The notes beneath the pieces were generated by a model. It saw only the letters and a program-made list of their open reading frames with translations. It ran no database searches and was not told the DNA's origin. A program made the translations under genes and the position numbers. This document shows, piece by piece, positions 3,316-31,105 of a stretch of 64,000 nt of DNA; within the stretch, counting starts at the first letter, position 1; each line of letters starts with the position of its first letter. Origin of the DNA: Candidatus Lloydbacteria bacterium RIFCSPHIGHO2_02_FULL_50_18 (GTDB lineage: Bacteria; Patescibacteriota; Minisyncoccia; Phycocordibacterales; UBA6899); NCBI GenBank assembly GCA_001821395.1, contig MHLM01000001.1:1-64000 (forward strand), read 5' to 3'.

Positions 3316-3318
3316 TAT

Positions 3319-3717: not shown

Positions 3718-3738
3718 TTATTCAACTCATCACACACC

Positions 3739-5304: not shown

Positions 5305-5306
5305 CC

Positions 5307-6242: not shown

Positions 6243-6267
6243 ATTAATTAATCATCAATATTTACGT

Positions 6268-8069
<1,802 letters not shown>

Positions 8070-10477: not shown

Positions 10478-10602
10478 AGTGCTTTTATCGAGAGTGTGGA
10501 GTAGGGAATTGGCCCGATGATACCACCAGCAACCACCTTTGGAGAGGACAGGTGCTAAATCCAAACCCCTATGGGGAAGATGAATGTGGTTGGAGGAATA
10601 AT
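10478..10602 (+). promoter_or_regulatory. SAM-I (S-box) riboswitch aptamer in the metK leader
   Basis: GCTTTTATCGAGAGTGTGGAGTAGGGAATTGGCCCGATGATACCACCAGCAACC...AGGTGCTAAATCC...GGGGAAGATGAATG matches the SAM-I consensus (UUAUCaAGAGnGGnGGAGGGAnuGGCCCgAUGA..CC.GCAACC...GGUGCuAAnUCC...AGAUGA). It lies directly upstream of metK. Confidence 0.7.
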
Positions 10603-12010: not shown

Positions 12011-12037
12011 AAAAAACACTCCGCTTCATGCGGAGTG
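12011..12037 (-). terminator. Rho-independent terminator for the minus-strand membrane gene; its stop codon sits in the loop
   Basis: CACTCCGC-ttcat-GCGGAGTG with AAAAAA on the plus side, i.e. a T-run on the minus strand. Confidence 0.6.
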
Positions 12038-12550: not shown

Positions 12551-12581
12551 ATTGGCTTTCTCCGTGGAATGCTCTTTCCTC

Positions 12582-12610
12582 TTGATAGCACTTGGAGCAT
12601 CCTTGTCAAC
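12582..12610 (-). promoter_or_regulatory. Putative promoter for the membrane gene (minus strand)
   Basis: Minus-strand TTGACA - 17 nt - TATCAA, followed by GGAGAAAG and the ATG. Confidence 0.35.
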
Positions 12611-12623
12611 GTATGCATGGAAT

Positions 12624-12650
12624 AAAAAAAGCCGGATCAGGTGATCCGGC
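12624..12650 (-). terminator. Rho-independent terminator after the PIN-PhoH gene
   Basis: GCCGGATCA-GG-TGATCCGGC perfect palindrome with a run of seven A on the plus side, i.e. a T-run on the minus strand. Confidence 0.7.
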
Positions 12651-12660
12651 TTAATGCTGT

Positions 12661-14231: not shown

Positions 14232-16049
14232 ATGGAGCAAGAACCACTACAATCAGGGAAAAGCTTTCTTAAGGAGACAGGTCAGCCGCATGGTGGAACT
14301 GTTTTTCTGATCTTGACCCCGCTCATTCTTTGCGTCGGGGCGATCGGTACGGGTTGGCTTGTCTATTGGCTTCCGAAAACCGCTTATGCGGGTTCATCTT
14401 GGCAGATCATTAGCGCGGTCGTGGCAGTCCAAGCATTTCTTCTTACTTTCCTGCTTTTTTTGGTATTCCCCAAATATCGTGAATTTTCCGATCAGGCAAG
14501 CACCATTATAGAAGCGACCGCAGTCAAAGGGGAACGCTATGTGCGCGCACTCAGCGGATCGGGTCTTGGATATTGGGATCTCGATATTGAAACCGGTGAG
14601 GTGTTTATGTCCGCAAGTATGATGAGCATGCTCGGTTATTCCGACCGTGATCGACTGGATAATTTTCAGTTCTGGTTGAATAGCGTTCATCCTGATGACG
14701 CCGAAGGTCTTAAGCGTACGATGGAATATCATATCGACAAACGTACTCCCGACTATTCCATTGAGTACCGCATAAAAAGAGCGAACGGGGAATATGTTTG
14801 GGTCGCCGATAAGGGGAGGGCGATAACCGATGTTACGACCGGAAAGACGATCAAGCTTGCAGGTGTCACTCAAGATGTTTCTAATGTGAAACGCGTCCAG
14901 GAGGTGCTTGAAAGCCGAACACTCGAACTCGAAGAAGCGCAGAACAAGATCGAGCAGGAGATGCAAAATGTACGAAAGTTTCAGAAGGCCGTTGACTCAT
15001 CGACGGAGGCGGTATCGATCACCACACCGGACGGAGCGATCGTTTATGTTAATCCTGCTTGGTCGGCATTGAACGGGTTCACTGAAGCTGAAGCGTTAGG
15101 AAGAAATCCGCGGTTGCTGAAAAGCGAAGATACCAAAACGGACATTTTTGTCGCCATGTGGGAGAAGATTGCTGCGGGTGTTCCATTTCATACCGAAGAT
15201 GTCATGAATCGTCGGAAGGATGGATCGGTCTATCAGGCAGAATTGTCTATTTTTCCGATCCGTGAGGGAGCACAGACGTTGTTTTATGTCGCGCTTACTC
15301 AGGACATCACCTTACGCAAAGACGTCGATCGCGCGAAGACTGAATTCGTATCGCTTGCTTCGCATCAGTTGCGCACGCCGCTTTCCGCCATTCGTTGGTA
15401 TTCGGAAATGTTGCTGTCCAAATATGTTGGAGAGCTGAACGAAAAACAGCGTCAGTATGTGAAGGAGATCTACTCGGGGAACCTGCGAATGGTTGAGCTC
15501 GTCAATGCGTTGCTCAACGTATCACGCATCGACCTCGGTACGTTTGCCGTTGAGCCTGAGCCGGTCAATCTCGTGGAGATCTGCGACAGCGTCATCATGG
15601 AACTTACCCCCGGGATCAATGAACGTAAGCAGACCATCGAGCGGATCTATGCGAGCGCCCCCGGAACATATATTGCTGATCCGAAGCTGATCCGTATTGT
15701 ATTTCAAAATTTCCTTTCCAATGCGGTCAAGTATACGCAGCCGGAAGGTCACGTTGCAGTGGAGATCGCGACAAAGGAAAATAACCTCTACATCCGCGTA
15801 ACCGACAACGGATACGGTATTCCTAAGGCGCAACACTCAAAAATCTTTGAAAAACTCTTCCGGGCTGACAATGTTCGGCAAAAGGATACGGAAGGGACAG
15901 GACTCGGAATGTATATCGTGAAAGCAATCGTCGAATCGTCGGGAGGTAAGATATGGTTCGATTCGGAGGAAAATCAGGGTACGACATTCCATGTTTTGTT
16001 GCCGATGAGCGGTATGACCAAAAAGTCAGGAATGAAGGGACTTTCGTAG
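14232..16049 (+). CDS. Membrane-anchored PAS-domain sensor histidine kinase (two PAS, HisKA, HATPase_c)
   Basis: Two N-terminal TM helices, PAS-like repeats, H-box ASHQLRTPLSAIRWYSEML, N-box NAVKYT and G-boxes DNGYGIP / GTGLGMYIV. Confidence 0.9.
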   Translation: MEQEPLQSGKSFLKETGQPHGGTVFLILTPLILCVGAIGTGWLVYWLPKTAYAGSSWQIISAVVAVQAFLLTFLLFLVFPKYREFSDQASTIIEATAVKGERYVRALSGSGLGYWDLDIETGEVFMSASMMSMLGYSDRDRLDNFQFWLNSVHPDDAEGLKRTMEYHIDKRTPDYSIEYRIKRANGEYVWVADKGRAITDVTTGKTIKLAGVTQDVSNVKRVQEVLESRTLELEEAQNKIEQEMQNVRKFQKAVDSSTEAVSITTPDGAIVYVNPAWSALNGFTEAEALGRNPRLLKSEDTKTDIFVAMWEKIAAGVPFHTEDVMNRRKDGSVYQAELSIFPIREGAQTLFYVALTQDITLRKDVDRAKTEFVSLASHQLRTPLSAIRWYSEMLLSKYVGELNEKQRQYVKEIYSGNLRMVELVNALLNVSRIDLGTFAVEPEPVNLVEICDSVIMELTPGINERKQTIERIYASAPGTYIADPKLIRIVFQNFLSNAVKYTQPEGHVAVEIATKENNLYIRVTDNGYGIPKAQHSKIFEKLFRADNVRQKDTEGTGLGMYIVKAIVESSGGKIWFDSEENQGTTFHVLLPMSGMTKKSGMKGLS

Positions 16050-16117
16050 CGCGGATACGCACTGTTCGCATAAAAAGGAACATGGTAGGATAAGTATGTA
16101 TGGAAGAAGAAAAAAAA

Positions 16118-16507
16118 ATGAGAATATTGATACTTGAGGATGAACGCCAGCTTGCGAAAGCGGTGCGTGACGCTTTCACCGATCGTGGATTTGAAGCGAT
16201 CGTCGTTGCAACGGTGGGTGACGGTATCAAGCAACTGGAAAATCTTAAAATGGTCGACATTATTTGGCTGGATCACTACCTTCTCGGTGCGGAGAATGGC
16301 CTCGATTTTGTCGTACAACTCAAAAACCATTCGTCCTGGAAGAATATCCCGATCTTTGTTGTATCGAATAATGCAACAACGACCAATATCCGTTCCTATA
16401 TTCAGCTCGGTGTCACAAACTATTATACGAAAGCAGACTATGACATCAGTCAGATCATCAATGATATCAAGTATGCCCTTGCTCAAAAGGCATCGGCGCA
16501 GGCATAA
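16118..16507 (+). CDS. Single-domain response regulator (CheY-like receiver), copy 1
   Basis: ILILEDE acidic pocket, phospho-acceptor Asp in IIWLDHY, VVSNN and YYTKAD (conserved Ser/Lys). No output domain. ORF could start at 16100. Confidence 0.85.
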   Translation: MRILILEDERQLAKAVRDAFTDRGFEAIVVATVGDGIKQLENLKMVDIIWLDHYLLGAENGLDFVVQLKNHSSWKNIPIFVVSNNATTTNIRSYIQLGVTNYYTKADYDISQIINDIKYALAQKASAQA

Positions 16508-16516
16508 CATTACACC

Positions 16517-16915
16517 ATGAGTGAACTACTTAATAAAAAAATACTGATCGTTGAAGATGAAGCGCCGCTCCGCAACGCGGTTACCGATATCCTCACGTTT
16601 GAGGGGTTTACAGTCTTTCAAGGAAAAAACGGGCAAGAGGGTCTCGACATCGCGCTCCGTGAACATCCCGACCTGATCCTTCTTGATCTCATGATGCCTG
16701 TCATGGACGGCCTCACGATGCTTGAGAAATTACGGCTCGATCCCGACTACGGAAAATCCGCAGCGGTTATCCTGCTCACCAATATCAACGATCCTGAAAA
16801 GGTCGCTCAGGCGACAGAAGCCGGTTCGTATGATTTTTTGGTGAAGTCTGACTGGAATATTGAAGATGTGGTGAAAAAAATAAAAGGCAGACTGAGCATT
16901 GGTATTGCCGAGTGA
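16517..16915 (+). CDS. Single-domain response regulator (CheY-like receiver), copy 2
   Basis: ILIVEDE, LILLDLMMPVMDG, LLTN and LVKSD receiver motifs. Confidence 0.9.
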   Translation: MSELLNKKILIVEDEAPLRNAVTDILTFEGFTVFQGKNGQEGLDIALREHPDLILLDLMMPVMDGLTMLEKLRLDPDYGKSAAVILLTNINDPEKVAQATEAGSYDFLVKSDWNIEDVVKKIKGRLSIGIAE

Positions 16916-16961
16916 TCACCGTCGATCACTTACTTTTTTTCTCATCAAGAGAACGAATGAT

Positions 16962-17339
16962 ATGAGTAAAAAACACATTCTAATTGTTGACGATGAAGCG
17001 GCGCTCCGGCAGGTGCTTGAGGACAGGCTTCTCGATGAGGGTTTTATTGTCACAAAGGCCGTCAACGGGAAGGAGGGATTAAGTCTCGCGCTCGAAAAAC
17101 GTCCCGATCTTATCTTGCTTGATATCATGATGCCGATCATGGATGGATTGACCATGCTTGAAGACCTGAGGAGGGATAATGAATACGGAAACTCTGTACC
17201 CGTTATACTGCTCACGAACATCAACGATCATGATAAAGTTGAACGGGCTAGAGCGGCGGGCTCACACGACTGCCTGATGAAATCCGATTGGGACCTGTCG
17301 GACGTGTTAAAGAAGATCAGAGCGATTCTCACCGTGTAG
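16962..17339 (+). CDS. Single-domain response regulator (CheY-like receiver), copy 3 (paralog of copy 2)
   Basis: ILIVDDE, LILLDIMMPIMDG, LLTN and LMKSD. About 60% identical to copy 2. Confidence 0.9.
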   Translation: MSKKHILIVDDEAALRQVLEDRLLDEGFIVTKAVNGKEGLSLALEKRPDLILLDIMMPIMDGLTMLEDLRRDNEYGNSVPVILLTNINDHDKVERARAAGSHDCLMKSDWDLSDVLKKIRAILTV

Positions 17340-17380
17340 TTTTTACCAATAGAAAATTAACAGATTATATCCACCCTACT

Positions 17381-17614
17381 ATGTTCAAAGAATTCTTGAT
17401 GAAAAAGCTCATCGCATCGAAGCTCGGAAATATGCCGAAGGAGCAGCAAGAAAAGATCATTGGTCTTGTCACAAAGAATCCGAAACTGTTCGAGGAGATC
17501 GCACTCAAGATCAAAAAGAAGACCGATGCCGGTGCGAACCAGATGATGGCAACCACAACGGTCATGAAAGAATACGCTCCGCAGATCCAGAAGCTGATGG
17601 CAGGATCGGATTAG
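17381..17614 (+). CDS. Small lysine-rich helical hypothetical protein (no His, so not an Hpt)
   Basis: ORF 17288..17614 trimmed to the ATG at 17381 after the upstream receiver gene. No SD and no family recognised. Confidence 0.4.
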   Translation: MFKEFLMKKLIASKLGNMPKEQQEKIIGLVTKNPKLFEEIALKIKKKTDAGANQMMATTTVMKEYAPQIQKLMAGSD

Positions 17615-17684: not shown

Positions 17685-18515
17685 TTATGAAGCGAAAAAA
17701 TATACGCACGCATAAATTATTGTCGAAATGACACCTGAGATTAATATATCAACCGGTGTTATTGGGTACATATATTCATGACGATACGAAGGAGATTTGC
17801 ACATGCGACCCTCAAAAAGGTTCGCCTGTGACACTATTGCACACATCCATTGCTCTGTGCGTCGTTCTTCAAAAAACATTTTTTCCTCTTCGTACTGTGT
17901 CAATTCCTTTTCGCATTCAGTTTTAAAACGCTCGACACTCAAGCCTTTAGATATCCACATTTCACGCTGCTTATGTGCATACCGATCACCTGCCCGTTTA
18001 ATTTTCTGATCAGCGAAAAGCTTTTCACGATCTCCACGTTGGCGAAGCACGGGTACAAGAAGAAGTGCGACAAGCATTGGAGACAATACGAGTAGCATAA
18101 AGACAAACCCAAGTATTGTTAGCATGAACATGATAAGCTCAACGTCGACCCCCGAATTCACCCCAGTGCCTTCATCATTGTCACTCCTTGATGATTTGTA
18201 GCTACTTGCACTGCCCCCACTACTACTTGAGGTGGTGCTGCTTTCCGAATTTTTTGGAGAAGGGGAATTCCATCCACTATTGAAACCCGACTTATATTGC
18301 TCACTTCCGAGTAGGTCTCCAAAAAATTGATGATCTGCCCCGTCCTTCTGACCTCGCGCATTGTCATATCCATTGTTATAGGTTTCGACTCTGGATTTCC
18401 ATTCCTGGGTTGATTCTCCCGGAATCGGCCACGGCTCATGTCGATCGGAACCACTTGCGCCGTCCTTCTCGCCGTTGTTGTGACTCGTCTGTTTCGGATT
18501 GTCAAAGAATCCCAT
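17685..18515 (-). CDS. Hypothetical membrane protein with a Gly/Ser/Asn-rich low-complexity N-terminal region
   Basis: AGGAGG lies 7 nt upstream of the ATG on the minus strand. About 120 aa of G/S/N-rich sequence are followed by a TM helix (LIMFMLTILGFVFMLLVLSPMLVALLLV), a charged domain and a C-terminal hydrophobic helix. Confidence 0.65.
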   Translation of the reverse strand: MGFFDNPKQTSHNNGEKDGASGSDRHEPWPIPGESTQEWKSRVETYNNGYDNARGQKDGADHQFFGDLLGSEQYKSGFNSGWNSPSPKNSESSTTSSSSGGSASSYKSSRSDNDEGTGVNSGVDVELIMFMLTILGFVFMLLVLSPMLVALLLVPVLRQRGDREKLFADQKIKRAGDRYAHKQREMWISKGLSVERFKTECEKELTQYEEEKMFFEERRTEQWMCAIVSQANLFEGRMCKSPSYRHEYMYPITPVDILISGVISTIIYACVYFFAS

Positions 18516-18585: not shown

Positions 18586-18618
18586 ATAAAAAGACCCGAA
18601 CTATAATGGCTCGGGTCT
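18586..18618 (-). terminator. Rho-independent terminator after the Pat-like gene
   Basis: AGACCCGA-N11-TCGGGTCT with AAAAA on the plus side, i.e. a T-run on the minus strand. Confidence 0.55.
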
Positions 18619-18625
18619 ATAACTG

Positions 18626-21349
18626 CTATTTACAAGACAAGTCCTTTTCAAACAGCACCATGGAATGATCTTCCGGATCAGGAGATTCACTGAATCCTGC
18701 TCCCTTAAACACTTTACGCATTTGCGCATTTGCTCGTTCCGTAATGCCGGTCAATTTCACAATCTGATTCTTCATAGCCCAATCGACGCTCGCTTCCATA
18801 AGGTAGCTCGCGAGATGCTGCCCTTTGTGGTCAGTACGTGTAAAGAACGCAATTTCAAATTCGCCTGCATCGTTTGCACGAACAATGCGCGTCACGCTGA
18901 CTATTTCTCCCTTCTCGTTTTCAGCAACAAATGCCATATGATTGCGATAGTCGATATTGCAGCGCGGCGCGAGACGTTTATGGCTCTTGCGTGTTTCTAA
19001 AGATATCGCCGTATAGTAACGGTGATAGACATCCTCCTTGCTTACCTGTTCGTGAAAGAACGACATCTTACCTTCATCAGATGCATCTATCGGTCGAATG
19101 GTAATTGCGTCGCCATTTGCAAGATGCACGATATGCACAAATGCACCGGGGTAGGGGCGTATTGCAGGATTTCTCCCGACTTCATCAGGAGCAAATAACT
19201 CAATGCGCGCATCGATCGCACATACATCCTCTGGGCTTGCGAGTAATGGATTCATTTCGATTGACCGAACGAGCCCCGAAAGACTTGTCGCAACCTCAGA
19301 GAGTCGTACCCCTGCTTCTACAATGGCATCAATATTTGCTGCTTTAGCACCGCGTACACCTTTAAGAATTTTGAATATTCTTGTCTGCTCCATCAATTGA
19401 AGCATTTGCGCACTTGAGTGTTGATTGATACCCATTGCGGTGTCACCAAAATACTCAACGTGCGTGCCGCCCCGACCGAAGATCATAATCGGTCCAAAGT
19501 CCGGATCATTGGTAGTTCCAAGAAATATTTCATGAGCATCTTTGGTTTTCACCATCGATTGGATCGTTACACCACAGAATGAGTGTGCGCCGAGTTTGTC
19601 AGTGACCGACTTTTTGATCTCATGAAACGCTTTTCCAACGTCGAATGGATTGCGAAGATTTAGGTGTACACCAAATTCACTTTTGTGCGAAAGGGCGGCG
19701 TTCACACCGGGATATATTTCCGCATGTGCTTTCACCACAACAGGGTAACCGATATGACGCGAAGCTTCCATTGCTACTGCTTCAGAACGCGCAACACGAA
19801 TAACGTTTGTGGGTATCTGCGCCATACGCAGTATCTCTTTTGCCTCGTCCTCTGCGAGCAGCGTGCGACCTCCGTCACGAATTTCAAGGAGGAGTCGTCG
19901 CATTTCTTTGAGTGTTGCATCGCTAATGCGAGGGATAGCACGAGGAGTTTGATAGAGCACTTCATGTCTACGACGATACTCAGCAAGATGCCCGAGAATA
20001 CGTGCAGCAGTGTCTGGGTTTTGAAGCACAGGGATACTGGCTTCTTGAAGTAGTTTTTCTCCACCGCCGATAGACCATCCACCTGTCCAGACGACAAAGA
20101 CCGGTTTGCGAAATCCAACCGCACGTTGTTCGCTTACTGCCTGAATAATTCCTTTCGCAACTTCTTCAGGAGGTGACATGGCGGTAGGAACATACATGAT
20201 GATCACGGACTCAACGTTTTTGTCTGCGAGTACTGTCCGTACTGATTGGTAATACCGTTCACGCCCCGCATCACCAATGATGTCTACGGGATTCCCGTGT
20301 GACCAATTTGACGGCAAAAAAGCATCAAGTGCGGTCAGTGTTTCTGTGGTGAGTGCTACGGGTAAGAGTCCCGAAAGTGCAGCACGATCAGCTGCGATCA
20401 CCCCTGGTCCACCACCATTCGTGATGAAGGTATAACGATCAGATCTGGGGAGTTCCTGGTTAGCAACGATAGCAGTAGAAAACATTTCATCAAGCGAATC
20501 GACTCTGATCGCTTGTGTTCTGCGCAACGCCGCATCAAAGACTTTGTCGTTACCCGCAAGTGAGCCCGTATGTGTTGCCGCTGCTTTTGCAGCAGCCTCA
20601 CTTCGGCCCGGCTTGAAGACGACAACGAGCTTGTGTTCCGATACTTCGCGGAGTGCAGAAAGAAAACCTTCCGCATCAGCTCCAATACCTTCAACATACA
20701 AAAGAATCGCGTGGGTCTTGGGGTCAGACCCGAGATAGGAAAGATATTCTTTCCACGACAGATCAAAGGCATTGCCCATCGTGATCACTTTGTTGAGACC
20801 AACGCCAAGTCCACGTGCACGATCGACGAGCGCGACGGCTACGCCACCGCTCTGCGAAATGATTGAAACATGTCCAGGCGACGATATGCCCGTCAGTCCG
20901 AATGTAAGGTCAAGACCATTTTCCATGTTCATGAGCCCAAAGCAGTTCGGTCCAACAATGCGCGTATTACTCCCTGCGACCGCATCTTCAAGTTCTTTTT
21001 GAAGCTGATCGCCTTCTTTCGTGTGCACTTCACCAAAACCGGCGCTGATGATGAGCAAATATTTCACTCCACGCGTTGCGCATGATCGTGCAATATTTGG
21101 TACATATTGTGCCGCCGTCGTGATGACGACGAGCTCTGGAACATCGTCAAGTTCTTCTATCGAATGAACCGTACGCAATCCCACAATCGGCTGTGTTGCA
21201 TTGGGGTTGATCGCAATAATGCGATTGATAGGAAATCCTCCACGTGCCGCTCGTTGTGCAAGAACATTACCGAGTTTTCCGGGAGTGTCACTTGCGCCGA
21301 TAATGGCGACCGAGGATGGGTGAAATAACCCATACAATTTTGATCTCAT
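18626..21349 (-). CDS. Pat/YfiQ-type protein acetyltransferase: NDP-forming acyl-CoA synthetase (CoA-binding, ligase-CoA and ATP-grasp domains) fused to a C-terminal GNAT
   Basis: N-terminal CoA-binding Rossmann domain (VAIIGASDTPGKLGNV...ISAGFGE), central succinyl-CoA-synthetase-like and ATP-grasp regions, and a C-terminal ~130-aa GNAT-like domain. Start at MRSKLYG has AAGGAG 7 nt upstream. Confidence 0.85.
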   Translation of the reverse strand: MRSKLYGLFHPSSVAIIGASDTPGKLGNVLAQRAARGGFPINRIIAINPNATQPIVGLRTVHSIEELDDVPELVVITTAAQYVPNIARSCATRGVKYLLIISAGFGEVHTKEGDQLQKELEDAVAGSNTRIVGPNCFGLMNMENGLDLTFGLTGISSPGHVSIISQSGGVAVALVDRARGLGVGLNKVITMGNAFDLSWKEYLSYLGSDPKTHAILLYVEGIGADAEGFLSALREVSEHKLVVVFKPGRSEAAAKAAATHTGSLAGNDKVFDAALRRTQAIRVDSLDEMFSTAIVANQELPRSDRYTFITNGGGPGVIAADRAALSGLLPVALTTETLTALDAFLPSNWSHGNPVDIIGDAGRERYYQSVRTVLADKNVESVIIMYVPTAMSPPEEVAKGIIQAVSEQRAVGFRKPVFVVWTGGWSIGGGEKLLQEASIPVLQNPDTAARILGHLAEYRRRHEVLYQTPRAIPRISDATLKEMRRLLLEIRDGGRTLLAEDEAKEILRMAQIPTNVIRVARSEAVAMEASRHIGYPVVVKAHAEIYPGVNAALSHKSEFGVHLNLRNPFDVGKAFHEIKKSVTDKLGAHSFCGVTIQSMVKTKDAHEIFLGTTNDPDFGPIMIFGRGGTHVEYFGDTAMGINQHSSAQMLQLMEQTRIFKILKGVRGAKAANIDAIVEAGVRLSEVATSLSGLVRSIEMNPLLASPEDVCAIDARIELFAPDEVGRNPAIRPYPGAFVHIVHLANGDAITIRPIDASDEGKMSFFHEQVSKEDVYHRYYTAISLETRKSHKRLAPRCNIDYRNHMAFVAENEKGEIVSVTRIVRANDAGEFEIAFFTRTDHKGQHLASYLMEASVDWAMKNQIVKLTGITERANAQMRKVFKGAGFSESPDPEDHSMVLFEKDLSCK

Positions 21350-21591
21350 ACTATTCTCCTTGTGGTGCCCCAAAGTACAAAAGGGCTAGTTACAAAGTAC
21401 TTCTTGCTTCGATTTACCATATTTTTTAAAAAAAGCAACTGGCTATTTTTTAGTATTTAATTTCCTCTCCGAATAGGAATGCTCGTCCTTTGGCCTTCAA
21501 AAAACCGTGCGACACGATCATTATGAGGTCCGTCGATTCAATGTGGTTGTCGCGTTGTTAATAAGACCCATGATTGTTATAGTTACATGAC

Positions 21592-24500
21592 ATGTTCAGA
21601 ACACGTAAAGGTCGCTCTTCGTCACGTGGGATCGAGAGTCTTGCAAAAGAGCTCACGTTGACCGCACAACTTTCTTTCGACGAACGTCGGGCTACGATCT
21701 TCGCCCAACGATCAAGAAAAACACTCATTCGTACTCGCGCTGCATATCGCGACCTGTTGCAGCATCTTAATGAACGAGTACAGGCAACTCAGGGTATCGA
21801 ACTGCTTCTGGATAATTTCTATATCATTGAGAGTGCGTTGACCGAGCTGCTCTCGAGCTGGAAGGAAAAGATGACACTTCGTGTCCCTCAATCGCAGGAC
21901 GTCGACGGGGAAAAACAGCCACGTGTATATACGATCGCGCGCGCATTAACAAAGGAGGTGGATGCAAGATTTGACCGTGAAACGATTATTGAATTTCTCA
22001 GATCCTATCAAAAGAATACTCCTCTTTCGTTGCGGGAACTTGATATTTTTCCGGATATGTTGCGATTCGTGCTCATTGAAGAGGTGCTTCGGATCATCGA
22101 TGCGAGTCTTGCGGTGCTAAAGGAAAAGGCTGATGCGAATCGTTGGTACGAGCGCATCGTTGATGCAAGTCGACACAAAAATACTTCGGCTCGCTTGAGA
22201 AAGCTTACGGGTCTTCTTGCTGCAGAATATACCATCATTCCACAAATATTCGGTTTGCATCTGCTCCACCGCTTAGATCAGGCGGGAAAGGAGGGCGATA
22301 TCCGTATGGTAAGCAAGTGGCTTAAACTTTCGCTTTCAAAACAAGGAGTAAGCTATGCTCAGCTTTCAACGCTGAAATCCCATACGGAAAAAGTGCAGGC
22401 AGCCACGATGAGAAATGCGGTGACGAGTCTTCGTTATCTGTCTCAAGTACGATGGGATAAGGTCTCTCTGGAATTGAATATGGTCGATGCTGTCCTCTCC
22501 AAAGATCCTGTTGGCGCATTCGCGATGCTCACTGATGACGCGCGCTCTTTGTATCGCAGGACCATTGCGCGTATTAGTGACGGGACGGGAACACACGACA
22601 TCGAGGTCGCACGTGAAGCAGTACGTCTTGCGCGACAAGCAGTCGAAGTGGGAAATGACAAGACCATGCGTTCGCATCATGTGGGATATTATCTGCTTGA
22701 TAAGGGCGTCTTGGAGCTTGAACAGATGCTTGGATACGTACCGACATTCATGGAGAGTGTGCGCATGATCGTCTTGAAGCACAATACGAATGCGTACCTC
22801 GGATTCATTTGTGTTGTCACGCTTCTCTCGACCGGTGTATTTCTTGCACAGAGTGGCGCGTTCGCGTTCTCCGCACTTCTTTTTTTTGCGATGTTCATGC
22901 TGGGACTACTGTTGATGTCAGAAGTGGCAACGGTATTCGCTCACTTTATGTTTACAAGGATACTTATTCCGAAACAATTGCCCGCACTCGATCTTGCGCT
23001 CGGTATTGGTGACGCTCGTCGAACGGTGGTTGTCGTGCCTTCGATGTTTCGGAGTGCCGCCTCTGCACAGAAGATACTTCGAAGAATGGAGACGAATTTT
23101 GTGGGGAATAGTGACACAAATATTTTTTATGCTTTTTTGATGGATTTCCGTGATGCGAAGTCTGAAGAAGTGCCGCAAGACAACAAGCGTGTCACCGAGA
23201 TGAGGGAGGGGATCATGCTGCTCAATGCAAAGTATCCGTCAGCCATACCTCGTTTTGCATTGTTCTATCGCAAACGAAAATGGAATACCGCCGAAGGTAC
23301 ATTTATGGGCTGGGAAAGGAAGCGTGGGAAACTCAAGGAATTCAATGATCTATTGCGTGGTAAGGAAACATCGTACATCGATGACGCACAAAAGTGTGCA
23401 GCAGCTTATGGAACCGTCCGTTACGTGATCACGCTCGACGAAGACACGGAGCTCGTAAGAGATTCAGCGCGATCGCTTATTGGAACGATCGACCATCCGC
23501 TCAATCGCCCCGTAGTAGATCCGGTCAAAATGGTCGTTACAGAGGGCTATGGAATTGTTCAACCGCGAAGCGCTTTAAGATTCGAGGAAGGAGGAGCATC
23601 ACTCTTTTCTCGATTATTTGGCAGTTACCCGGGTATTGAGTCCTACTCATCGTTTGTTTCTGACCTGCATCAGGACCTGTTCGGAGAGGGTATATTTCAC
23701 GGAAAAGGTATTTACGATATCGATGCGTTTAATACAACGATGTCGGAACGTATCCCGGAGAACACCGTGCTTTCGCATGACCTGCTCGAAGGCTTGTACG
23801 CTCGAGTCGGCATCGCAAGTAGTGCGCACATTTTTGAGGGTTTTCCGTCAAATTATCGGGAGTATATACAGCGGTCTCATCGCTGGATACGTGGAGACTG
23901 GCAGATTATTACATGGCTATTTGACCGTGGTGCGGTATTTTCACGGATCGGTCGATATCGTATCTTTGATAATCTTCGACGGAGTTTGATCCCCATAGCC
24001 GCAGTGCTTGCGGTGATCTTTTCTTTATTTTCTGCGGCGGAGCTATCATCGTGGAGCATTGTCGCACTGCTTGCGATCGGTTCGGGTCAATTGATATCCG
24101 CAGTATTGCGCATCACCGAACGAACTACGAATTGGAAACGGCCGGTAAGTATCGTCGCGAGATTCGAATCAATGATCACTAGCTCGGTTGTGGCGCTCGT
24201 TAAAACATTATTTCTTGGCGCATTCGCACTCCATAGCGCAATGATCACTATTGATGCGATCGTGAGAAGTATGTGGCGACTCTTTTTTTCAAAAAGGCAT
24301 CTTCTTGAGTGGCAGACCGCATATGAAGCAGCTCTTGAGCGGAAAGATTCGATCAAGGGCTTCATACGATTCATGTGGCGCAGTGTGTGCCTCTCTCTCG
24401 CGCTCGTTTATCTCTTGTTCCACGGTGGAGGCATACAGGACCCCGTCGTGGTCATGTGGGTTCTTGCATGGCTCTTTGCTCCGTATTGCGCGGCGAGGAT

Positions 24501-27500
24501 CAGTGCAGAGCTGAAGAACAGGTATGTGCTTTCGGATACCGAACGTTTATATCTGCGTAAGGTTGCAGCACGGACATACTGGTTCTTTATTGACCTTGCA
24601 ACAAAGGAAGATAGCTGGCTTGTGCCGGATCATCTTCAGGAAGAACCACCAAGTAAGCGCCATTCCCATGGGCTCGGTATCTCCCCGACAAATCTTGGTA
24701 TGTACCTTTTGTCACTTTCGGGAGGACGAGCATTGGGACTCTCGTCGCTTTCAGCATACACAGATCGGATAACGCGCGCCTTTGCAAGTATGGAACGCAT
24801 GGTGCGTTACAACGGGCATTTTTATAATTGGTATGAACTGAAGCAGCTCACACCGCTTGCTCCCCGCTACGTATCAAGTGTTGATAGTGCAAATCTTGCA
24901 TTGTCACTACTCGCAGTGAAGGGTGCCCTCATTGATGCCACCGATGCACCGATTATTAGCGATGCCATGTTTCAAGGGCTCGATGCGCAACTCCACGTAC
25001 TCCTCGAGTCATGCGAACAAGCGATCACAATCAAGACGTCCGAACGTCACGAACGAAAATTACTTGGGGAGATCAGGTCGGCTGCTACAGAATCGATCAT
25101 GCTGATCCAGAAAGTGGCGAACGAAGCATTGACGCCTCGAGGAAGTGATCTTGTTTGGACTGGGGTCATTCATCATGCGGTACGTACGAGGAATGCACTC
25201 GAGGAATTGCGTCTCGAGGGGAAAAGCGAGCGTTTTGAGGAAATATTCCTCGCTGCGAGACATATTGAATCTGTCGCTGATGCCTATCGGGATAATGTTG
25301 CGCGATATCTCGGACACGCGGTCATTTCTGCGGTTTCCGCTTTAGCTCATGACCCCAAGCTTCATGCGCTGTATCTCCAGCTTTCGTTACTGTTGCAGCG
25401 GATACCAAGTGTGAATGATCTTGCTGATGGAGTAGTTCGGCGGGAGATCGAATCAGTCGGAATTCTTGATGCGGTTCTGCTTTCTCAGCTTGAAACAGAA
25501 GAAAAAAAGCGAGTTCGTGCGTGGTACGCACAGATCTTAGAAAGACTTGCCGAATCTGAAAAAAGAGCATCCGAGGCGCAGTCTTCATTGATCGGGTCTG
25601 CAAAGAGCGCGGCTGCTTATGTAGAGGAAATGAATTTTGAATTTCTTTATAATAAAGAGCGCGGTCTATTCCATATCGGATATAATTGCTCTACCGAAAA
25701 ACTCGATGAAGCATTTTATGATCTGCTCGCTTCAGAAGCGAATTCGACAAGTATCATCGGAATTGCTAAGCGTGATGTCCCTCAGGCACATTGGGCATAT
25801 CTCGGCAGAAAGTTGATCCAGAGCGGGAACGGCGACGTACTCGTTGCTTCATGGGCGGGATCGTTATTTGAGTATTTGGGAACGCTATTGTATTTCAACG
25901 TCCCGAGGGAAAGTTTTTGGGGTGTCTCTGCTCAGCGGGCTATTGCGGCACATCAGGCTTTTGCGCAGAAATATCATATACCGTGGGGGATGGGTGAGTC
26001 TGCCTCTTCGCGGCAAGATGTTGCACGGAATTATCATTACCAAGCATTCGGAGAACCATCCCTTGGTTTTAAGCGTGATCTTTCCGAATCGATCGTTGTC
26101 GCTCCGTATACAAGTGCTCTCGCACTTTCGATGGCACCAAAAGAAGCACTCGCAAATTTTCAACAGCTTGAGCGCGCCGGGGCATTTGGTCGCTACGGTT
26201 TCTATGATGCGATTGATTTTACGAAGAAAAGGGCAAAAGAATACCGTGAATCTTCGGGGGTACCTGCACGAATATATTATGCGCATCATCAGGGATTCAT
26301 ACTTTCATCGATCATCAATGTGCTCAATGATGGTTGGGTTCGTACGATGGTTGCTAAGGATCCTCAAATGGAAGTGTCAACACAGTTGTTTGAGGAGAAG
26401 ATGCCGGAAGACGTTCGCGGTGAGAAGATCAGCCCTATCGTCCCCGAAATACCTGTTGCTCAAACAGTATCAACGTTTGCAGCATCTCCTCGTCGGTATC
26501 TTCCGTGGCGTACCAAAGAAGCAACCTCAATGTTTCTTTCAAATGAAGATTATTTTACCCGAATCACCGCGACGGGTGCCGGAGAGAGCTCCATCGGCGA
26601 TGTATTGATCACTCGAGCATCAAGCGATATGTTGCGCGAGTCTGTCGGCACCTTCTTCTATGTCTTTGATGCGGCACGAGACAAGATGTGGTCACCAACG
26701 TACATGCCGACGCGAGTCGCGGGTGATAAGCATACTGTTTCCTTCGGTGAACAGATCATTCAATTCAAGAAAACGCATGAGGAGATCGACTCATCGTTGA
26801 TCGTGACCCCCCTTATTCAAGATCATGGAGAGTTGCGCGAGCTTTCACTTACCAACACAAGAGAAAAAGAGACCGTGCTTACCTTCGGAGTATGCGCAGA
26901 ACTGTCACTTTCGCGAAGACAGGATGAATCATCACACCCGAACTATGAGCAGCTCTTCGTTTCTACTGAAACGCATTGGGGGGGGCGTGCCATCATTGCT
27001 TCGCGCCCCGACCCGCATGATCGTAATCACCATATTGTAGCCGGTTTTCTTCTCGTCGGAGACGGTATGCTTGATGACGTACATGCGATAAGAGAGAAAA
27101 GCCTTTTCTTGGGTTCCCCGGAGCAAAAAGATGATCCGCCAATATTGCGTGACCTCTCACGTGCGAACAAGGAGGGTCCTGCTCACACGCTCGACAGTGT
27201 CGCCGCATTCGTCGGTCGTGTTCGATTGCGGCCGAAAGCAACCACCCGTGTCACATTGGTGACAATCGTAGGGAAGTCAAAAGAAGAGGTATTTGCACGT
27301 CTAAAGATCTATCGCAATTACAAGTCTGTACTGGGTGTCATAGGTGGCGCCGACCGTGCAGGGGGGCAACTGCTGAGCGAGCTCAGCATCACGGCACTTC
27401 AGGCTGAAGCCTACGGTACCCTGGCTTCAATTGCTATCGCTCGTGAAGTAAAAAGCGGAAAGGAATCAAACTCCAATGCTCGTCCTTGGGTCTCAGCTCT

Positions 27501-30363
27501 TTGGAAAATGAGCATATCAGGAAGTCGTCCTATCATTTTGTGCCCGGTGACGGGAGCAACGGATATTCCTATGGTACGACAGCTACTTAGCTGCCATTCG
27601 TATTTCGTCAAAAAAGGCATCGTGGTCGACCTCGTGATCTTTAATGAACATTCCGGCGGATATCTGAAGACCTTTGAAGATGAAATAGACTTTTTACTTA
27701 ATATGCATCACGCGCAGAATGGAAATACTCTATCTACGGTATTTCACGTGCATGCAGAGCAATTAAGTGACCTTGAGCAAGATGCCGTCATGAGTGCGGC
27801 AAGCGTGTGCATAGACACGAAAAAGGGTTCGATCGTGGATGCAACCGTTTCATTGCGACGAAGCGCGACGCGAAAATATCCCCAGAAACTCAGCATACGA
27901 TCCAAGCGCACCGAGAGTATTCCCACACAGCCGCAACAGGGGAATACAAACGCCTTGCAGTTCTTTAACGGGATCGGTGGTTATGATGAAGCAAAAAAGG
28001 AGTATGTTGTCTTCCGCACGAAAGAAACACGCCCGGTTCGCCCGTGGTCGCACATTGTTGCAAACGCGCATGTCGGTTTTCTTGCGACCGACAGGGGGAC
28101 ATCTTTTACGTGGTCACGAAATAGTTACGATAACAAACTGACCATACCGTATAATGACCCTCTTTCTGCGCATACCGGCGAAGCGATATATCTCCGAGAT
28201 GAGGACACTGGCGCATGGATCAGTCCGTTCCCGGTCGTGAACAAAGAGGCGCTCGACTGTGAGGTGCGCTTTGGTGAAGGGTATTGCACGTATATTACAC
28301 ATGCACCCGGCATCACGATCAACATGACCATGTATGTGGGGGTAGACGAATCAGTTAAATATTACCGCGTTGAAATGACCAATACGAGCAAGCGTCAGAA
28401 GTCATTTGCGCTTTTTGGATATTTCGAACTGTTAATGGGAAGTCTTGAACGGGAAACAAAAAAACATCTTTCTTTCCGCGTCACCCCAGAAAATATTTTG
28501 GTGGCAACACAAAACTATCGTCATCAATTTTTGGACAGCAGGATCTTTGTCGGGATCGTGGGGGGCGCAGATGAATTTACCGTCAGTCGGGAGGAATTTC
28601 TGGGAAGATATGGAATGATCAGTGCGCCTGCAGCGCTGACACGAAAGGGGCTTTCAAGTGAGATCCATGGTGACGAAGAATCAGCTACTGCGCTGAAGAA
28701 AGATATCACGATTGCTCCGGGGGAACAAAAGGTGGAAGTATTCTTTCTGGGAGAGACGGATGAGGAGAAGCTGCCGAACCTGCTCCAGCGATTACAGGAT
28801 TCCAGTCACTCCGAACAAGCATTCACGATGACGAAACAAAAGTGGAACGCACTTCCATTACCGAAATTCACGCTACCGGACGCGACACTTTCTGCGCTTG
28901 CCAATCAGTTTCTTCCATACCAAACACTTTCCTCGCGTATCTATGCACGGCTTGGATTCTACCAAATTGGCGGTGCGATCGGCTTTCGCGATCAGTTGCA
29001 GGATGCGCTATCGATACTCTGGTATGATCCATCGTGGGTACGTGAGCACATTCTCGTTTCTGCCGCGCATCAGTTCCGAGAGGGTGACGTGCTTTCGTGG
29101 TGGCAGCCGCATAATAATTTCGGTGCTCGGACGCGACTTTCCGACCCGCATCTTTGGTTGCCGCATGTCACACTTCGCTATGTGCGATTTACCGGCGACG
29201 AAGCGATCCTCGACGAAATGGTGCCATATTTGTCAGGAGAAATTCCCGATAAAGCTGATCGACCGAATGTCGTGGGTATTTTTGAGTCCAGCAACGAAGC
29301 AACCACGCTTTATGAGCACCTGATACGTGCAGTCGAGCGTTCACTGACCGCAGGAGTCCACGGATTGCCGCTCATGTGCGCAGCAGACTGGAATGATGGG
29401 ATGAACCGGGTTGGCTCAGAGGGTGAAGGAGAGAGCGTGTGGCTTGCGTGGTTTCTCGTTTCCGTGCTCGATGAGATGAGCCTACTTACTGAAAAGCGCG
29501 GTGACCCATCGCGCGCAGAGCGTTACCGCGCTCACTCAAGAGGCTATCGGGACGCATTGAAAAAATTTGGGTGGGGTGGAAAATGGTATCGACGAGCGTA
29601 CACCGACAGCGGTGCAATGGTTGGAGCGAGCAGCGCAAAGGAGTCCCGCCTTGATTCAATAACGCAGTCGTGGGCATATTTTGCAGACGGAGATACCAAA
29701 GAAAGCAGAGAAGCATTGCGCTCCGCAAAACAGGAGCTCTCTATACATGATGGCCATGTGCCTCTTTTTTGGCCTCCATCCTCGCGGGCCGTCCTCGACT
29801 TGGGCACTGTTTCAGACTACCCACCCGGCGTGCGGGAGAACGCCGCGCAGTATAATCATGCTGCTCTTTGGCTTGCACAAGCACTTTTTGCCTCAGGAGA
29901 CCCCGATGCGGGAATGATGGTTGTTGATGCGGTGAATCCGTTCAAGCGAAGTGAGACAAAAGAAAAAGCGCTGGTTTATCAGGGAGAACCTTACGTGGTT
30001 GCCGCTGAAGTGTATTCTTCCCCCACGTACCCCGGACAAGCTGGTTGGACCTGGTATACCGCATCTGCAGGGGTGCTTTACCGTACGATACTAGAATATA
30101 TGCTCGGTGTGAAACACGAAGGAAACACACTGACATTCTCCCCGTCATTCCCAACGTCGTGGCACAACGCTTCGTTGGCATTACCGTACGGTGGGTCACT
30201 CTATAGCATAACATTTGAGGTGAAGGGTAGAGATGCGCCCAAGGAAGTTCTCGTTGACGGAATTCATGTGAAAAACAACGCGGTTACGCTTGTCGATGAT
30301 AAGACAGCGCATAAGGTCCATGTTTCTTTTGGAAGGACCTCGGGGAAAGACTCGTCGTCATAG
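21592..30363 (+). CDS. cgs: Cyclic beta-1,2-glucan synthase (Cgs/NdvB/ChvB-type): membrane GT84 glycosyltransferase domain plus C-terminal GH94 glucan phosphorylase-like domain, 2923 aa
   Basis: TM-flanked GT domain containing YVITLDEDTEL...QRSHRWIRGDWQII (D-x-D and QxxRW-like motifs), and a large C-terminal alpha-barrel region with CAADWNDGMNRVG (GH94 catalytic signature). Length and architecture match cyclic glucan synthases. Confidence 0.88.
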   Translation: MFRTRKGRSSSRGIESLAKELTLTAQLSFDERRATIFAQRSRKTLIRTRAAYRDLLQHLNERVQATQGIELLLDNFYIIESALTELLSSWKEKMTLRVPQSQDVDGEKQPRVYTIARALTKEVDARFDRETIIEFLRSYQKNTPLSLRELDIFPDMLRFVLIEEVLRIIDASLAVLKEKADANRWYERIVDASRHKNTSARLRKLTGLLAAEYTIIPQIFGLHLLHRLDQAGKEGDIRMVSKWLKLSLSKQGVSYAQLSTLKSHTEKVQAATMRNAVTSLRYLSQVRWDKVSLELNMVDAVLSKDPVGAFAMLTDDARSLYRRTIARISDGTGTHDIEVAREAVRLARQAVEVGNDKTMRSHHVGYYLLDKGVLELEQMLGYVPTFMESVRMIVLKHNTNAYLGFICVVTLLSTGVFLAQSGAFAFSALLFFAMFMLGLLLMSEVATVFAHFMFTRILIPKQLPALDLALGIGDARRTVVVVPSMFRSAASAQKILRRMETNFVGNSDTNIFYAFLMDFRDAKSEEVPQDNKRVTEMREGIMLLNAKYPSAIPRFALFYRKRKWNTAEGTFMGWERKRGKLKEFNDLLRGKETSYIDDAQKCAAAYGTVRYVITLDEDTELVRDSARSLIGTIDHPLNRPVVDPVKMVVTEGYGIVQPRSALRFEEGGASLFSRLFGSYPGIESYSSFVSDLHQDLFGEGIFHGKGIYDIDAFNTTMSERIPENTVLSHDLLEGLYARVGIASSAHIFEGFPSNYREYIQRSHRWIRGDWQIITWLFDRGAVFSRIGRYRIFDNLRRSLIPIAAVLAVIFSLFSAAELSSWSIVALLAIGSGQLISAVLRITERTTNWKRPVSIVARFESMITSSVVALVKTLFLGAFALHSAMITIDAIVRSMWRLFFSKRHLLEWQTAYEAALERKDSIKGFIRFMWRSVCLSLALVYLLFHGGGIQDPVVVMWVLAWLFAPYCAARISAELKNRYVLSDTERLYLRKVAARTYWFFIDLATKEDSWLVPDHLQEEPPSKRHSHGLGISPTNLGMYLLSLSGGRALGLSSLSAYTDRITRAFASMERMVRYNGHFYNWYELKQLTPLAPRYVSSVDSANLALSLLAVKGALIDATDAPIISDAMFQGLDAQLHVLLESCEQAITIKTSERHERKLLGEIRSAATESIMLIQKVANEALTPRGSDLVWTGVIHHAVRTRNALEELRLEGKSERFEEIFLAARHIESVADAYRDNVARYLGHAVISAVSALAHDPKLHALYLQLSLLLQRIPSVNDLADGVVRREIESVGILDAVLLSQLETEEKKRVRAWYAQILERLAESEKRASEAQSSLIGSAKSAAAYVEEMNFEFLYNKERGLFHIGYNCSTEKLDEAFYDLLASEANSTSIIGIAKRDVPQAHWAYLGRKLIQSGNGDVLVASWAGSLFEYLGTLLYFNVPRESFWGVSAQRAIAAHQAFAQKYHIPWGMGESASSRQDVARNYHYQAFGEPSLGFKRDLSESIVVAPYTSALALSMAPKEALANFQQLERAGAFGRYGFYDAIDFTKKRAKEYRESSGVPARIYYAHHQGFILSSIINVLNDGWVRTMVAKDPQMEVSTQLFEEKMPEDVRGEKISPIVPEIPVAQTVSTFAASPRRYLPWRTKEATSMFLSNEDYFTRITATGAGESSIGDVLITRASSDMLRESVGTFFYVFDAARDKMWSPTYMPTRVAGDKHTVSFGEQIIQFKKTHEEIDSSLIVTPLIQDHGELRELSLTNTREKETVLTFGVCAELSLSRRQDESSHPNYEQLFVSTETHWGGRAIIASRPDPHDRNHHIVAGFLLVGDGMLDDVHAIREKSLFLGSPEQKDDPPILRDLSRANKEGPAHTLDSVAAFVGRVRLRPKATTRVTLVTIVGKSKEEVFARLKIYRNYKSVLGVIGGADRAGGQLLSELSITALQAEAYGTLASIAIAREVKSGKESNSNARPWVSALWKMSISGSRPIILCPVTGATDIPMVRQLLSCHSYFVKKGIVVDLVIFNEHSGGYLKTFEDEIDFLLNMHHAQNGNTLSTVFHVHAEQLSDLEQDAVMSAASVCIDTKKGSIVDATVSLRRSATRKYPQKLSIRSKRTESIPTQPQQGNTNALQFFNGIGGYDEAKKEYVVFRTKETRPVRPWSHIVANAHVGFLATDRGTSFTWSRNSYDNKLTIPYNDPLSAHTGEAIYLRDEDTGAWISPFPVVNKEALDCEVRFGEGYCTYITHAPGITINMTMYVGVDESVKYYRVEMTNTSKRQKSFALFGYFELLMGSLERETKKHLSFRVTPENILVATQNYRHQFLDSRIFVGIVGGADEFTVSREEFLGRYGMISAPAALTRKGLSSEIHGDEESATALKKDITIAPGEQKVEVFFLGETDEEKLPNLLQRLQDSSHSEQAFTMTKQKWNALPLPKFTLPDATLSALANQFLPYQTLSSRIYARLGFYQIGGAIGFRDQLQDALSILWYDPSWVREHILVSAAHQFREGDVLSWWQPHNNFGARTRLSDPHLWLPHVTLRYVRFTGDEAILDEMVPYLSGEIPDKADRPNVVGIFESSNEATTLYEHLIRAVERSLTAGVHGLPLMCAADWNDGMNRVGSEGEGESVWLAWFLVSVLDEMSLLTEKRGDPSRAERYRAHSRGYRDALKKFGWGGKWYRRAYTDSGAMVGASSAKESRLDSITQSWAYFADGDTKESREALRSAKQELSIHDGHVPLFWPPSSRAVLDLGTVSDYPPGVRENAAQYNHAALWLAQALFASGDPDAGMMVVDAVNPFKRSETKEKALVYQGEPYVVAAEVYSSPTYPGQAGWTWYTASAGVLYRTILEYMLGVKHEGNTLTFSPSFPTSWHNASLALPYGGSLYSITFEVKGRDAPKEVLVDGIHVKNNAVTLVDDKTAHKVHVSFGRTSGKDSSS

Positions 30364-30562: not shown

Positions 30563-31105
30563 TTATTTATCGATGGGGCTCCTGCATGGGAGCGAAAGGA
30601 GTTTTACGAAGATCGGATTTGTTTCGTCATTCAGACCAAACTCTTTCGCATAAAGCAGCTCCGTTTTGTATGCCTCATGCTCTATGTGCTGCATACAGGC
30701 GAACGAGACCTTGGTCGGTGATTGCTCCTGCAGGTGATGCACAAGCTCGTGCACAAACGTGATTTTGTCTTCTTCAACGAGCATCGGATCAAACCCCAGA
30801 CCGACCCACATCACGCCCTTGTCATACGCTGCGCGCACATTGAGCGTACATTCGGATGTTTCGATGCCTTTGTCGCGGCAGATCATGTTTTTAAGGAATT
30901 CCTTGTCGACAAATCGCATTTCTGGATGCCCGACTTCCTTAATGCTGTATCGGGTATTTATCCCGAGCCAGTTCACGATGTCATCGTAAAGCGCGGTAAA
31001 GCGGGGTTCATCGAAGCCATACCTTACGGTTTCTTTCGCGAATGCCGGTGCCCCCAAAAAAAGACTGAGGGTAACGATCAACGCCATGATATTTCGGATT
31101 TTCAT
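30563..31105 (-). CDS. Secreted small protein with HExxH motif (putative zinc metallopeptidase-like)
   Basis: Signal peptide MKIRNIMALIVTLSLFLGAPAFA and FVHELVHHLQE (HExxH). No family recognised. Confidence 0.6.
   Translation of the reverse strand: MKIRNIMALIVTLSLFLGAPAFAKETVRYGFDEPRFTALYDDIVNWLGINTRYSIKEVGHPEMRFVDKEFLKNMICRDKGIETSECTLNVRAAYDKGVMWVGLGFDPMLVEEDKITFVHELVHHLQEQSPTKVSFACMQHIEHEAYKTELLYAKEFGLNDETNPIFVKLLSLPCRSPIDK

Follow-up and report, generated by a model that had tools for sequence, protein, structure and literature searches.

A single-chain fusion of an ADP-forming acyl-CoA synthetase and a GNAT domain in Candidatus Lloydbacteria, with a complete set of synthetase motifs and a divergent acetyltransferase CoA loop

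PatZ (YfiQ) and the Pat protein of Salmonella enterica (PDB 9it0, 9isq) are single chains of about 900 amino acids in which CoA-binding, ligase-CoA and ATP-grasp domains are followed by a GNAT acetyltransferase domain. The synthetase-like N-terminal domain of Pat/PatZ has been called inactive owing to a missing catalytic histidine (PMC3195501, PMC8556138, PMC12184503). According to the PatZ structure paper, H254 of ACD1, an ADP-forming acyl/acetyl-CoA synthetase (ACD), corresponds to L245 in PatZ, and this change abolishes ACD activity (PMC12184503). The archaeal ACDs, such as ACD1 of Candidatus Korarchaeum cryptofilum (4xyl, 4xym) and PH0766/PH1789 of Pyrococcus horikoshii (2csu, 1wr2), have all five subdomains on separate chains that form alpha2-beta2 heterotetramers, and they have no GNAT domain. 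Nmar_0206 is a fused single chain with the subdomain order 1-2-5-4-3 (PMC11494057); it also has no GNAT domain, and works in the CoA-ester-forming direction on 4-hydroxybutyrate. Here we describe a gene whose product has the domain order of PatZ and the catalytic motifs of the ACDs. It lies in a stretch of 64,000 nucleotides (the window) that forms positions 1 to 64,000 of contig MHLM01000001.1 of Candidatus Lloydbacteria, a Candidate Phyla Radiation (CPR; Parcubacteria) bacterium from groundwater of the Rifle aquifer.

The gene occupies positions 18626..21349 of the minus strand, counting the stop codon. The list of open reading frames (ORFs) gives a longer minus-strand frame that starts at a TTG codon (18626..21373). 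The ATG at 21349 is preceded by a ribosome-binding site, AAGGAGA, and translation from there yields a protein of 907 amino acids. This protein is identical in sequence to the deposited OGZ05109.1, whose annotation reads only "hypothetical protein". Look-ups of identical sequences assign it, together with a glucan synthase encoded beside it and the LeuRS of the window, to Candidatus Lloydbacteria bacterium RIFCSPHIGHO2_01_FULL_49_22. All five of its domain types exceed their Pfam gathering scores. The protein is a single-chain fusion of an ACD, with subdomain order 1-2-5-4-3, and a C-terminal GNAT domain, an architecture that is the same as in PatZ/Pat. An initial annotation of this DNA had described CoA-binding, NDP-forming ligase, ATP-grasp and C-terminal GNAT domains in a 907-residue protein and had named it a Pat-type regulator. 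Pfam and a full-length match to PatZ bear out this domain layout, and the interval given at that time, 18626-21592, comprises the gene plus its upstream intergenic region.

The domains follow one another on the minus strand. Subdomain 1, the Rossmann-like CoA-binding part (20927..21313, residues 13-141; CoA_binding_2, PF13380, E 5.6e-16), holds AGFGE (103-107) and also, by alignment, GPNC (133-136), which is located just ahead of subdomain 2. Subdomain 2, which resembles the flavodoxin-like part of succinyl-CoA ligase (20471..20878, residues 158-293; Succ_CoA_lig, PF13607, E 3.7e-47), carries SQSG and the swinging loop and aligns with 2csu, 4xyl_A and 8wzu. Subdomain 5, the ligase-CoA part (20033..20428, residues 308-439; Ligase_CoA_2, PF19045, E 7.5e-15), contains the NGGGPG loop at residues 311-316. 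Subdomains 4 and 3 make up the ATP-grasp domain (19196..19879, residues 491-718; ATP-grasp_5, PF13549, E 5.9e-55), which includes K540, H555 (codon 19685..19687), E632, D636 and E698-x-N700. The GNAT domain (18692..19105, residues 749-886) is recognised by both Acetyltransf_3 (PF13302, E 2.6e-09) and Acetyltransf_1 (PF00583, E 8.2e-08). Both scores lie above the cut-off, and the initial annotation's GNAT assignment withstands the profile search that it had proposed as a check.

The histidine whose loss is the basis for calling the Pat N-terminus inactive is present in this protein. The phosphohistidine swinging loop, KAAATHTGSLAGND (20546..20587, residues 255-268), was located by alignments to 2csu, ACD1 and Nmar_0206. 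Its H260 (codon CAT, 20570..20572) is part of THTGSLAG (KAAATHTGSLAG), which aligns with SHTGSLAG in 2csu, SHTGSIAG in ACD1 (H254 of the alpha subunit) and SHTGALMG in Nmar_0206 (H256). By contrast, the alignment of PatZ to the new protein shows a deletion of four residues at this loop. We made a confident AlphaFold model of the protein, built on 55 homologues (predicted local distance difference test score, pLDDT, 86.6; predicted template-modelling score, pTM, 0.85). The swinging loop has a pLDDT of 66-69 in this model, as expected of a mobile loop.

The remaining ACD motifs are kept as well. They are AGFGE, GPNC, SQSG, NGGGPG, SHKSE (which contains H555) and the E-x-N element of the ATP-grasp domain (with N700). 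The archaeal ACDs align with the new protein throughout these sites, namely at the SHTGS(L/I)AG loop, GPN(C/I)xG, GF(G/K)E, (G/A)GG(P/A)G, the HKSD/E histidine and D/E-x-N. We take the E-x-N element to be a metal site, by analogy with ATP-grasp enzymes in general. PatZ, by contrast, lacks the phosphohistidine, AGFxE, the cysteine of GPNC, the GGG loop (it reads NGAAPA where our protein has G313 and G314) and the asparagine of E-x-N (H676 occurs at the position of N700). The second histidine, in the ATP-grasp domain, is common to both proteins (H531 in PatZ, H555 here) and aligns with H535 of Nmar_0206, which has been proposed as the first phosphoryl acceptor (PMC11494057).

Comparison with homologues places PatZ, rather than the Lloydbacteria protein, at odds with the family in these motifs. 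Our sample was the best 120 of 5379 matches at E <= 1e-20, and residue comparisons use the 119 closest homologues. Both modules are present in every one of the best 120 matches, which cover 97-100% of the query. The ACD catalytic motifs examined and the catalytic glutamate of the GNAT domain are kept in 119 of 119 homologues, and H260, T261 and G262 are invariant in all of them. Within the ATP-grasp domain, K540, E632 and D636 are family-invariant. When the 116 homologues at about 39% identity are considered, 48 residues that are strictly invariant among them are kept by our protein and lost in PatZ. These include G104, F105, E107, C136, G168, H260, T261, G262, G313, G314, E632, D636, R666, G667 and N700. 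Judging from these alignments, retention of the histidine is the rule within the 119-homologue sample, and PatZ would be the derived form.

The architecture and the family are already known and annotated. Four of the best 120 matches (P0019, P0078, P0103 and P0107) are named [quoted passage not shown] by NCBI, and the gene described here is a divergent CPR addition to this bifunctional acetate-CoA ligase/GNAT family. Environmental ACD-GNAT proteins from Chloroflexota, Acidobacteriota, Nitrospira and other lineages are 37-40% identical over 97-100% of its length. Our literature searches retrieved no apparent biochemical characterisation of these environmental proteins and no biochemical study of any histidine-retaining ACD-GNAT, and searches for a statement on the Pat protein of R. 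palustris gave nothing usable. Closer relatives are few. We found P0001, which is a strain variant at 99% identity, and the groundwater proteins P0002 (73%) and P0003 (68%), after which identity drops to about 39% among the best-listed matches. The new protein, P0002 and P0003 form an isolated clade in sequence space. Scans of collections of genome contigs and metagenome contigs returned only distant homologues, at 34-36% identity, and these added nothing on variation in the GNAT CoA loop or on the pairing with the neighbouring gene that is discussed below.

One peculiarity of this clade lies close to the ATP-grasp histidine. An insertion of seven residues, of the type HAEIYPG (residues 541-547, window 19670-19730), occurs just before H555 in our protein, P0002 and P0003. 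Neither the other 116 homologues nor PatZ have it, and it is also lacking in the solved ACDs, including those of archaea.

The GNAT half also retains residues that are expected of an acetyltransferase. Its E832 (codon 18854..18856) aligns with the catalytic glutamate E809 of PatZ and is the residue noted above as invariant in all 119 homologues, R777 aligns with R754 of PatZ, and N874 is invariant in an alignment of 55 sequences. In the predicted model, this domain superposes on the GNAT domain of Streptomyces lividans PatA, which binds acetyl-CoA synthetase (Acs), with a template-modelling (TM) score of 0.90.

The loop that should hold the pyrophosphate of CoA is a different matter. Motif A of GNAT proteins canonically reads Arg/Gln-x-x-Gly-x-Gly/Ala and contacts the CoA phosphates (PMC8556138); in PatZ its glycines are G822 and G824 (PMC12184503). 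In our protein, motif A corresponds to residues 842-847 (18809..18826, minus strand), as judged by alignment to homologues and PatZ, and reads KGQHLA. The commonest form in the family, and the one typical of the environmental ACD-GNATs, is the canonical QGRGLG. P0002 has KRRGIG and P0003 has KGRGIA, while the strain variant P0001 has KRHHLT. Thus, H845 stands where 119 of 119 homologues and PatZ (G822) have glycine, and A847 stands where 118 of 119 homologues have glycine. We looked for motif A in other registers of the sequence, and none fits. Elsewhere, the lysine of PatZ that holds the 3′-phosphate of CoA (K860) corresponds to G883. The three PatZ residues that hold the allosteric acetyl-CoA (K23, R26 and R81) correspond to T, K and Y, respectively.

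This loop is also where the two strain variants differ most. Five of the 10 differences between our protein and P0001 fall within residues 840-848 (window 18800-18830), namely D840A, G843R, Q844H, A847T and S848T, and simulation puts the chance of such clustering at about 5e-6. The GNAT domain as a whole makes up 19% of the length and differs from P0001 at 6 of 173 residues, as compared with 4 of the 734 residues outside it (Fisher p = 0.005). The 73% and 68% relatives, too, match our protein least well in the GNAT domain (58% and 60% identity, respectively) and best in subdomain 2 (83% and 85%). Acetyltransferases are routinely rendered catalytically dead by mutating the motif A glycine that is H845 here to something bulky. 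Given these substitutions, binding of acetyl-CoA at the GNAT domain is expected to be weakened, and the variation at residues 840-848 suggests relaxed or diversifying selection. The GNAT domain is probably either a weakened or retuned lysine acetyltransferase, or else a structural or regulatory appendage. Two properties of the protein are noteworthy: the full ACD catalytic set, which is contrary to what reviews say of type I GNATs, and the loss of the P-loop glycine, which is lineage-specific and variable between strains.

Searches with parts of the protein point toward the ACDs. The N-terminal 460 amino acids, searched alone, reach 267 bits with 2csu and 239 bits with 4xyl_A (the alpha subunit of ACD1), versus 190 bits with PatZ. 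Searched in the same manner, the ATP-grasp part scores 119 bits against the beta subunit of ACD1, versus 44 bits against PatZ. The corresponding parts of the predicted model superpose on ACD1 alpha and ACD1 beta with TM scores of 0.93 and 0.94, and Nmar_0206, whose H256 and H535 align with H260 and H555 (PMC11494057), is a fold match to the model (TM to target 0.89-0.92). These similarities are found at modest sequence identity, which is about 30-33% for the archaeal ACDs and about 25% for Nmar_0206. At the level of sequence, then, the N-terminus aligns with catalytically competent ADP-forming ACDs, with H260 and the other ACD motifs in place. The initial annotation had set such an alignment as the sign of a metabolic enzyme rather than Pat, and its choice of Pat fares poorly in this respect.

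We slightly favor the interpretation that the protein is a working ACD that uses the H260 swinging loop, that its GNAT domain is a weakened or retuned appendage and that the gene beside it is functionally unrelated. An ATP-yielding metabolic enzyme seems more likely than a regulator, based on the residues that are kept and lost. By analogy with ACD1 and Nmar_0206, acetyl-CoA, or another short acyl-CoA, and phosphate would react at site I, to which one chain would contribute subdomains 1 and 2 and its partner subdomain 5. The phosphoryl group would then pass to H260 on the mobile loop, which would swing to the ATP-grasp domain. There, H555 and the putative E698/N700 metal site would assist in phosphorylating ADP, so that the products would be ATP, acetate and CoA. 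The reaction is reversible, and the enzyme could instead convert acetate into acetyl-CoA. For a CPR bacterium that lives by fermentation, the ATP-forming direction would constitute a step of substrate-level phosphorylation.

The host is compatible with such a role. The initial annotation had drawn on Proteobacteria for its functional frame, which does not apply directly to a CPR bacterium, and it had found a large regulatory acyltransferase unexpected beside trimmed housekeeping genes. The trimmed look of the window is explained by the fact that this is a CPR genome. [quoted passage not shown] The same contig also carries a complex-I-like membrane cluster, an F-type ATPase operon and glutamate dehydrogenase, which provide circumstantial agreement with an organism that needs a substrate-level source of ATP. 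CPR bacteria have very few ways to make ATP, and labeling this gene as an ACD alters the energy metabolism that would be predicted for its host. In general, annotations such as "Pat" or "protein acetyltransferase" may hide an energy-conserving enzyme.

Several observations weigh against a working ACD with a failing GNAT domain. Retention of the histidine does not prove turnover, and the 119-homologue sample was picked by similarity to a query that itself retains the histidine. The NCBIfam model TIGR02717 for the alpha subunit of acetate-CoA ligase gives our protein 409.5 bits, which is under its equivalog cut-off of 567.15 and only slightly higher than the 378.9 bits of PatZ, while P0019 scores 559. 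Overall similarity therefore does not distinguish a genuine ACD from a relic of the Pat type, and the argument depends on the named catalytic residues. [quoted passage not shown] It scores above the Pfam thresholds, keeps E832, R777 and N874, and is in frame in all three clade members, and it is therefore still under selection and may be active. Finally, among solved structures, both the best sequence match of the whole chain (E 2e-100 over residues 5-888) and the best fold match (TM 0.87/0.90 against liganded PatZ, 9it0) are E. coli PatZ (9it0/9isq).

The favored interpretation can be extended to a mirror image of PatZ, whose synthetase half is the pseudoenzyme and whose GNAT domain is active. 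Here, the synthetase half would instead be active and yield ATP, and the GNAT half would be on its way to becoming a pseudoenzyme, or an acetyltransferase whose acyl-donor site is altered and diversifies between strains. More broadly, most natural ACD-GNAT fusions would then be real synthetases. We regard this extension as speculative and rather doubtful as a whole. If true, it would contradict the textbook view of type I GNATs as having an inactive synthetase domain. The reviews' view of the Pat N-terminal domain as an inactive relic was drawn from enterobacterial proteins. Since the examined synthetase motifs persist in our protein and in each of its 119 closest homologues, the enterobacterial case may be the exception. 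The strain-variable CoA loop that lacks its glycine would offer a concrete example of a two-enzyme fusion with one half in decay or undergoing retuning.

The strongest competitor is that the protein is a classical type I, PatZ-like lysine acetyltransferase. Its GNAT domain would acetylate Acs or other proteins, the N-terminal region would be only an acetyl-CoA sensor and a scaffold for tetramerization, and the histidine would be left over or serve to bind a ligand. The whole-chain match to PatZ in sequence and fold speaks for this explanation, as do the conserved glutamate and the R754 equivalent, the close fit of the GNAT fold to an Acs-binding domain and the retention of that domain throughout the clade. 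Identity to PatZ is only 28-29%. [quoted passage not shown] Furthermore, the usual partners are missing nearby. Most of the larger ORFs in the window were surveyed with Pfam, and no AMP-forming Acs, SIR2 or histone-deacetylase family member was detected among them, in agreement with the initial annotation, which had seen no sirtuin or Acs gene there. Flanking DNA of roughly 18 kb in total (about 8 kb on the upstream side of the window and 10 kb on the downstream side) gave the same outcome, with no Acs, SIR2 or histone deacetylase among the Pfam marks on its called genes. The neighborhoods of four distant ACD-GNAT homologues have no recurring Acs, sirtuin, pyruvate:ferredoxin oxidoreductase or cyclic glucan synthase gene. 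Thus, identification as Pat holds for architecture, whole-chain sequence and fold, but does not fit the intact ACD catalytic residues or the missing motif A glycine, and we consider a classical Pat unlikely.

In those four neighborhoods, small ORFs (64-78 amino acids) are situated directly upstream of the homologues, and some overlap the start of the ACD-GNAT gene (L008 7816-8010, L011 7781-8017, L009 7576-7779 and L010 7577-7780). They are unannotated and belong to two unrelated types, beginning MFRFDxLIRRDM and MTSDWKxxYQLAM. They have no counterpart in the window.

A less probable alternative is that both halves work and are coupled, so that, for example, protein acetylation is gated by ACD turnover or by occupancy with acetyl-CoA, or the GNAT domain is fed with acetyl-CoA that the ACD produces from acetate and ATP. 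Key residues of both centers (H260, H555 and E832) are kept, and the fusion is old and widespread, given the thousands of matches and the full-length ACD-GNAT organization of the best 120. Also, the N-terminal region of PatZ controls its GNAT domain allosterically (PMC12184503). On the other hand, the GNAT domain of this lineage has a non-canonical CoA phosphate loop that varies from strain to strain, and literature searches gave no experimental report of such coupling. We thus find coupling quite improbable for the Lloydbacteria protein.

The ACD-GNAT gene is divergent from a gene for a cyclic beta-1,2-glucan synthase (cgs; 21592..30363, plus strand) that encodes 2923 amino acids, has GH94 and glucoamylase domains and matches 8rf9/8rf0 with 1424 bits. 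The two are separated by an AT-rich intergenic region of 242 bp (21350..21591). The initial annotation's giant glucan synthase and its gap of about 240 bp are therefore both confirmed. A promoter-like match, TTGTTA-17-TATAGT, faces cgs at 21555..21583; it is a consensus match only. The 242-bp region contains no consensus promoter match that faces the ACD-GNAT gene. Directly 3′ of the ACD-GNAT stop codon is a terminator-like hairpin (18592..18618, minus strand) with a 10-bp stem, six GC pairs and a TTTTATT tail. It too is a consensus match only, and it suggests that the ACD-GNAT gene is transcribed on its own.

Gene order in relatives does not preserve this pairing. In the two contigs of the 73% relatives (L003 and L004), a 228-aa gene and a SUF operon are located upstream of the ACD-GNAT homologue, and there is no cgs. 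The contig of the 68% relative (L005) is syntenic with the window on the downstream side, where a small ORF is 77% identical to window 17288-17614 and is accompanied by response regulators, and it also has a syntenic trace of ychF. Yet in the interval where the window has cgs, this contig carries genes for a ketoacyl synthase and YggT, among others, and no cgs. The initial annotation had treated the two genes as a pair; they are adjacent in the window, but their adjacency is not conserved in the 73% or the 68% relatives and appears to be a lineage-specific accident of gene order. A functional link, in which the glucan synthase would be regulated by acetylation or acyl-CoA would be supplied for modification of cyclic glucans, has the common divergent intergenic region in its favor, but was rejected as very improbable because the synteny is not conserved in these relatives, and the ACD-GNAT gene moreover has its own terminator-like hairpin.

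The cgs gene is itself full-length in a CPR genome. In L005, the interval between the ACD-GNAT gene and ychF, compared here with window 21592-30363 (plus strand) and 30563-31105 (minus strand), has quite different gene content. The cgs gene may therefore be a lineage-specific insertion.

We now note properties of other features of the window and contig. On the other side of the ACD-GNAT gene, the region 14232-17614 encodes a PAS-domain histidine kinase followed by three consecutive receiver-only response regulators (16100-16507, 16517-16915 and 16899-17339) and the small ORF mentioned above (17288-17614). The last response regulators and this small ORF are the part that is syntenic with L005. 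Immediately downstream of the ACD-GNAT gene is a 276-aa ORF (17685-18515, minus strand), which is absent at that position in L005. It is one of several sizeable ORFs that have no Pfam match at E <= 1e-5, the others being 12026-12739 (minus strand) and 36553-37779, 51259-52482 and 52492-54096 (all plus strand).

The complex-I-like membrane cluster is located at 38-850 of the window and at 388-9097 of L012, an upstream segment of the same contig. It is directly upstream of the F-type ATPase operon (1754-8069). Its products resemble NuoB, NuoH and a fused NuoCD, and there are three antiporter-like subunits as well. No CxxC motif occurs in the NuoCD-like protein, and only one cysteine is present in the NuoB-like protein. 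Based on these sequences, the cluster has the appearance of a hydrogenase-related complex that is devoid of metal sites, which would be unusual for a CPR genome. Two of the antiporter-like paralogues share a stretch of 120 nucleotides with 94% identity (L012 5175-5294 and 8248-8367, the latter being window 1-120). An apparent 3-kb deletion in the window relative to L012 was rejected, as it is explained by this repeat between the paralogues.

A SAM-I (S-box) riboswitch occurs at 10482-10586 on the plus strand (58.3 bits, above the gathering score) and precedes metK (10782-11834), the gene for S-adenosylmethionine synthetase. Lastly, an ORF at 42899-43750 (plus strand) encodes both an ATP-cone domain and a restriction endonuclease domain of the Mrr type, a combination that is not often seen.

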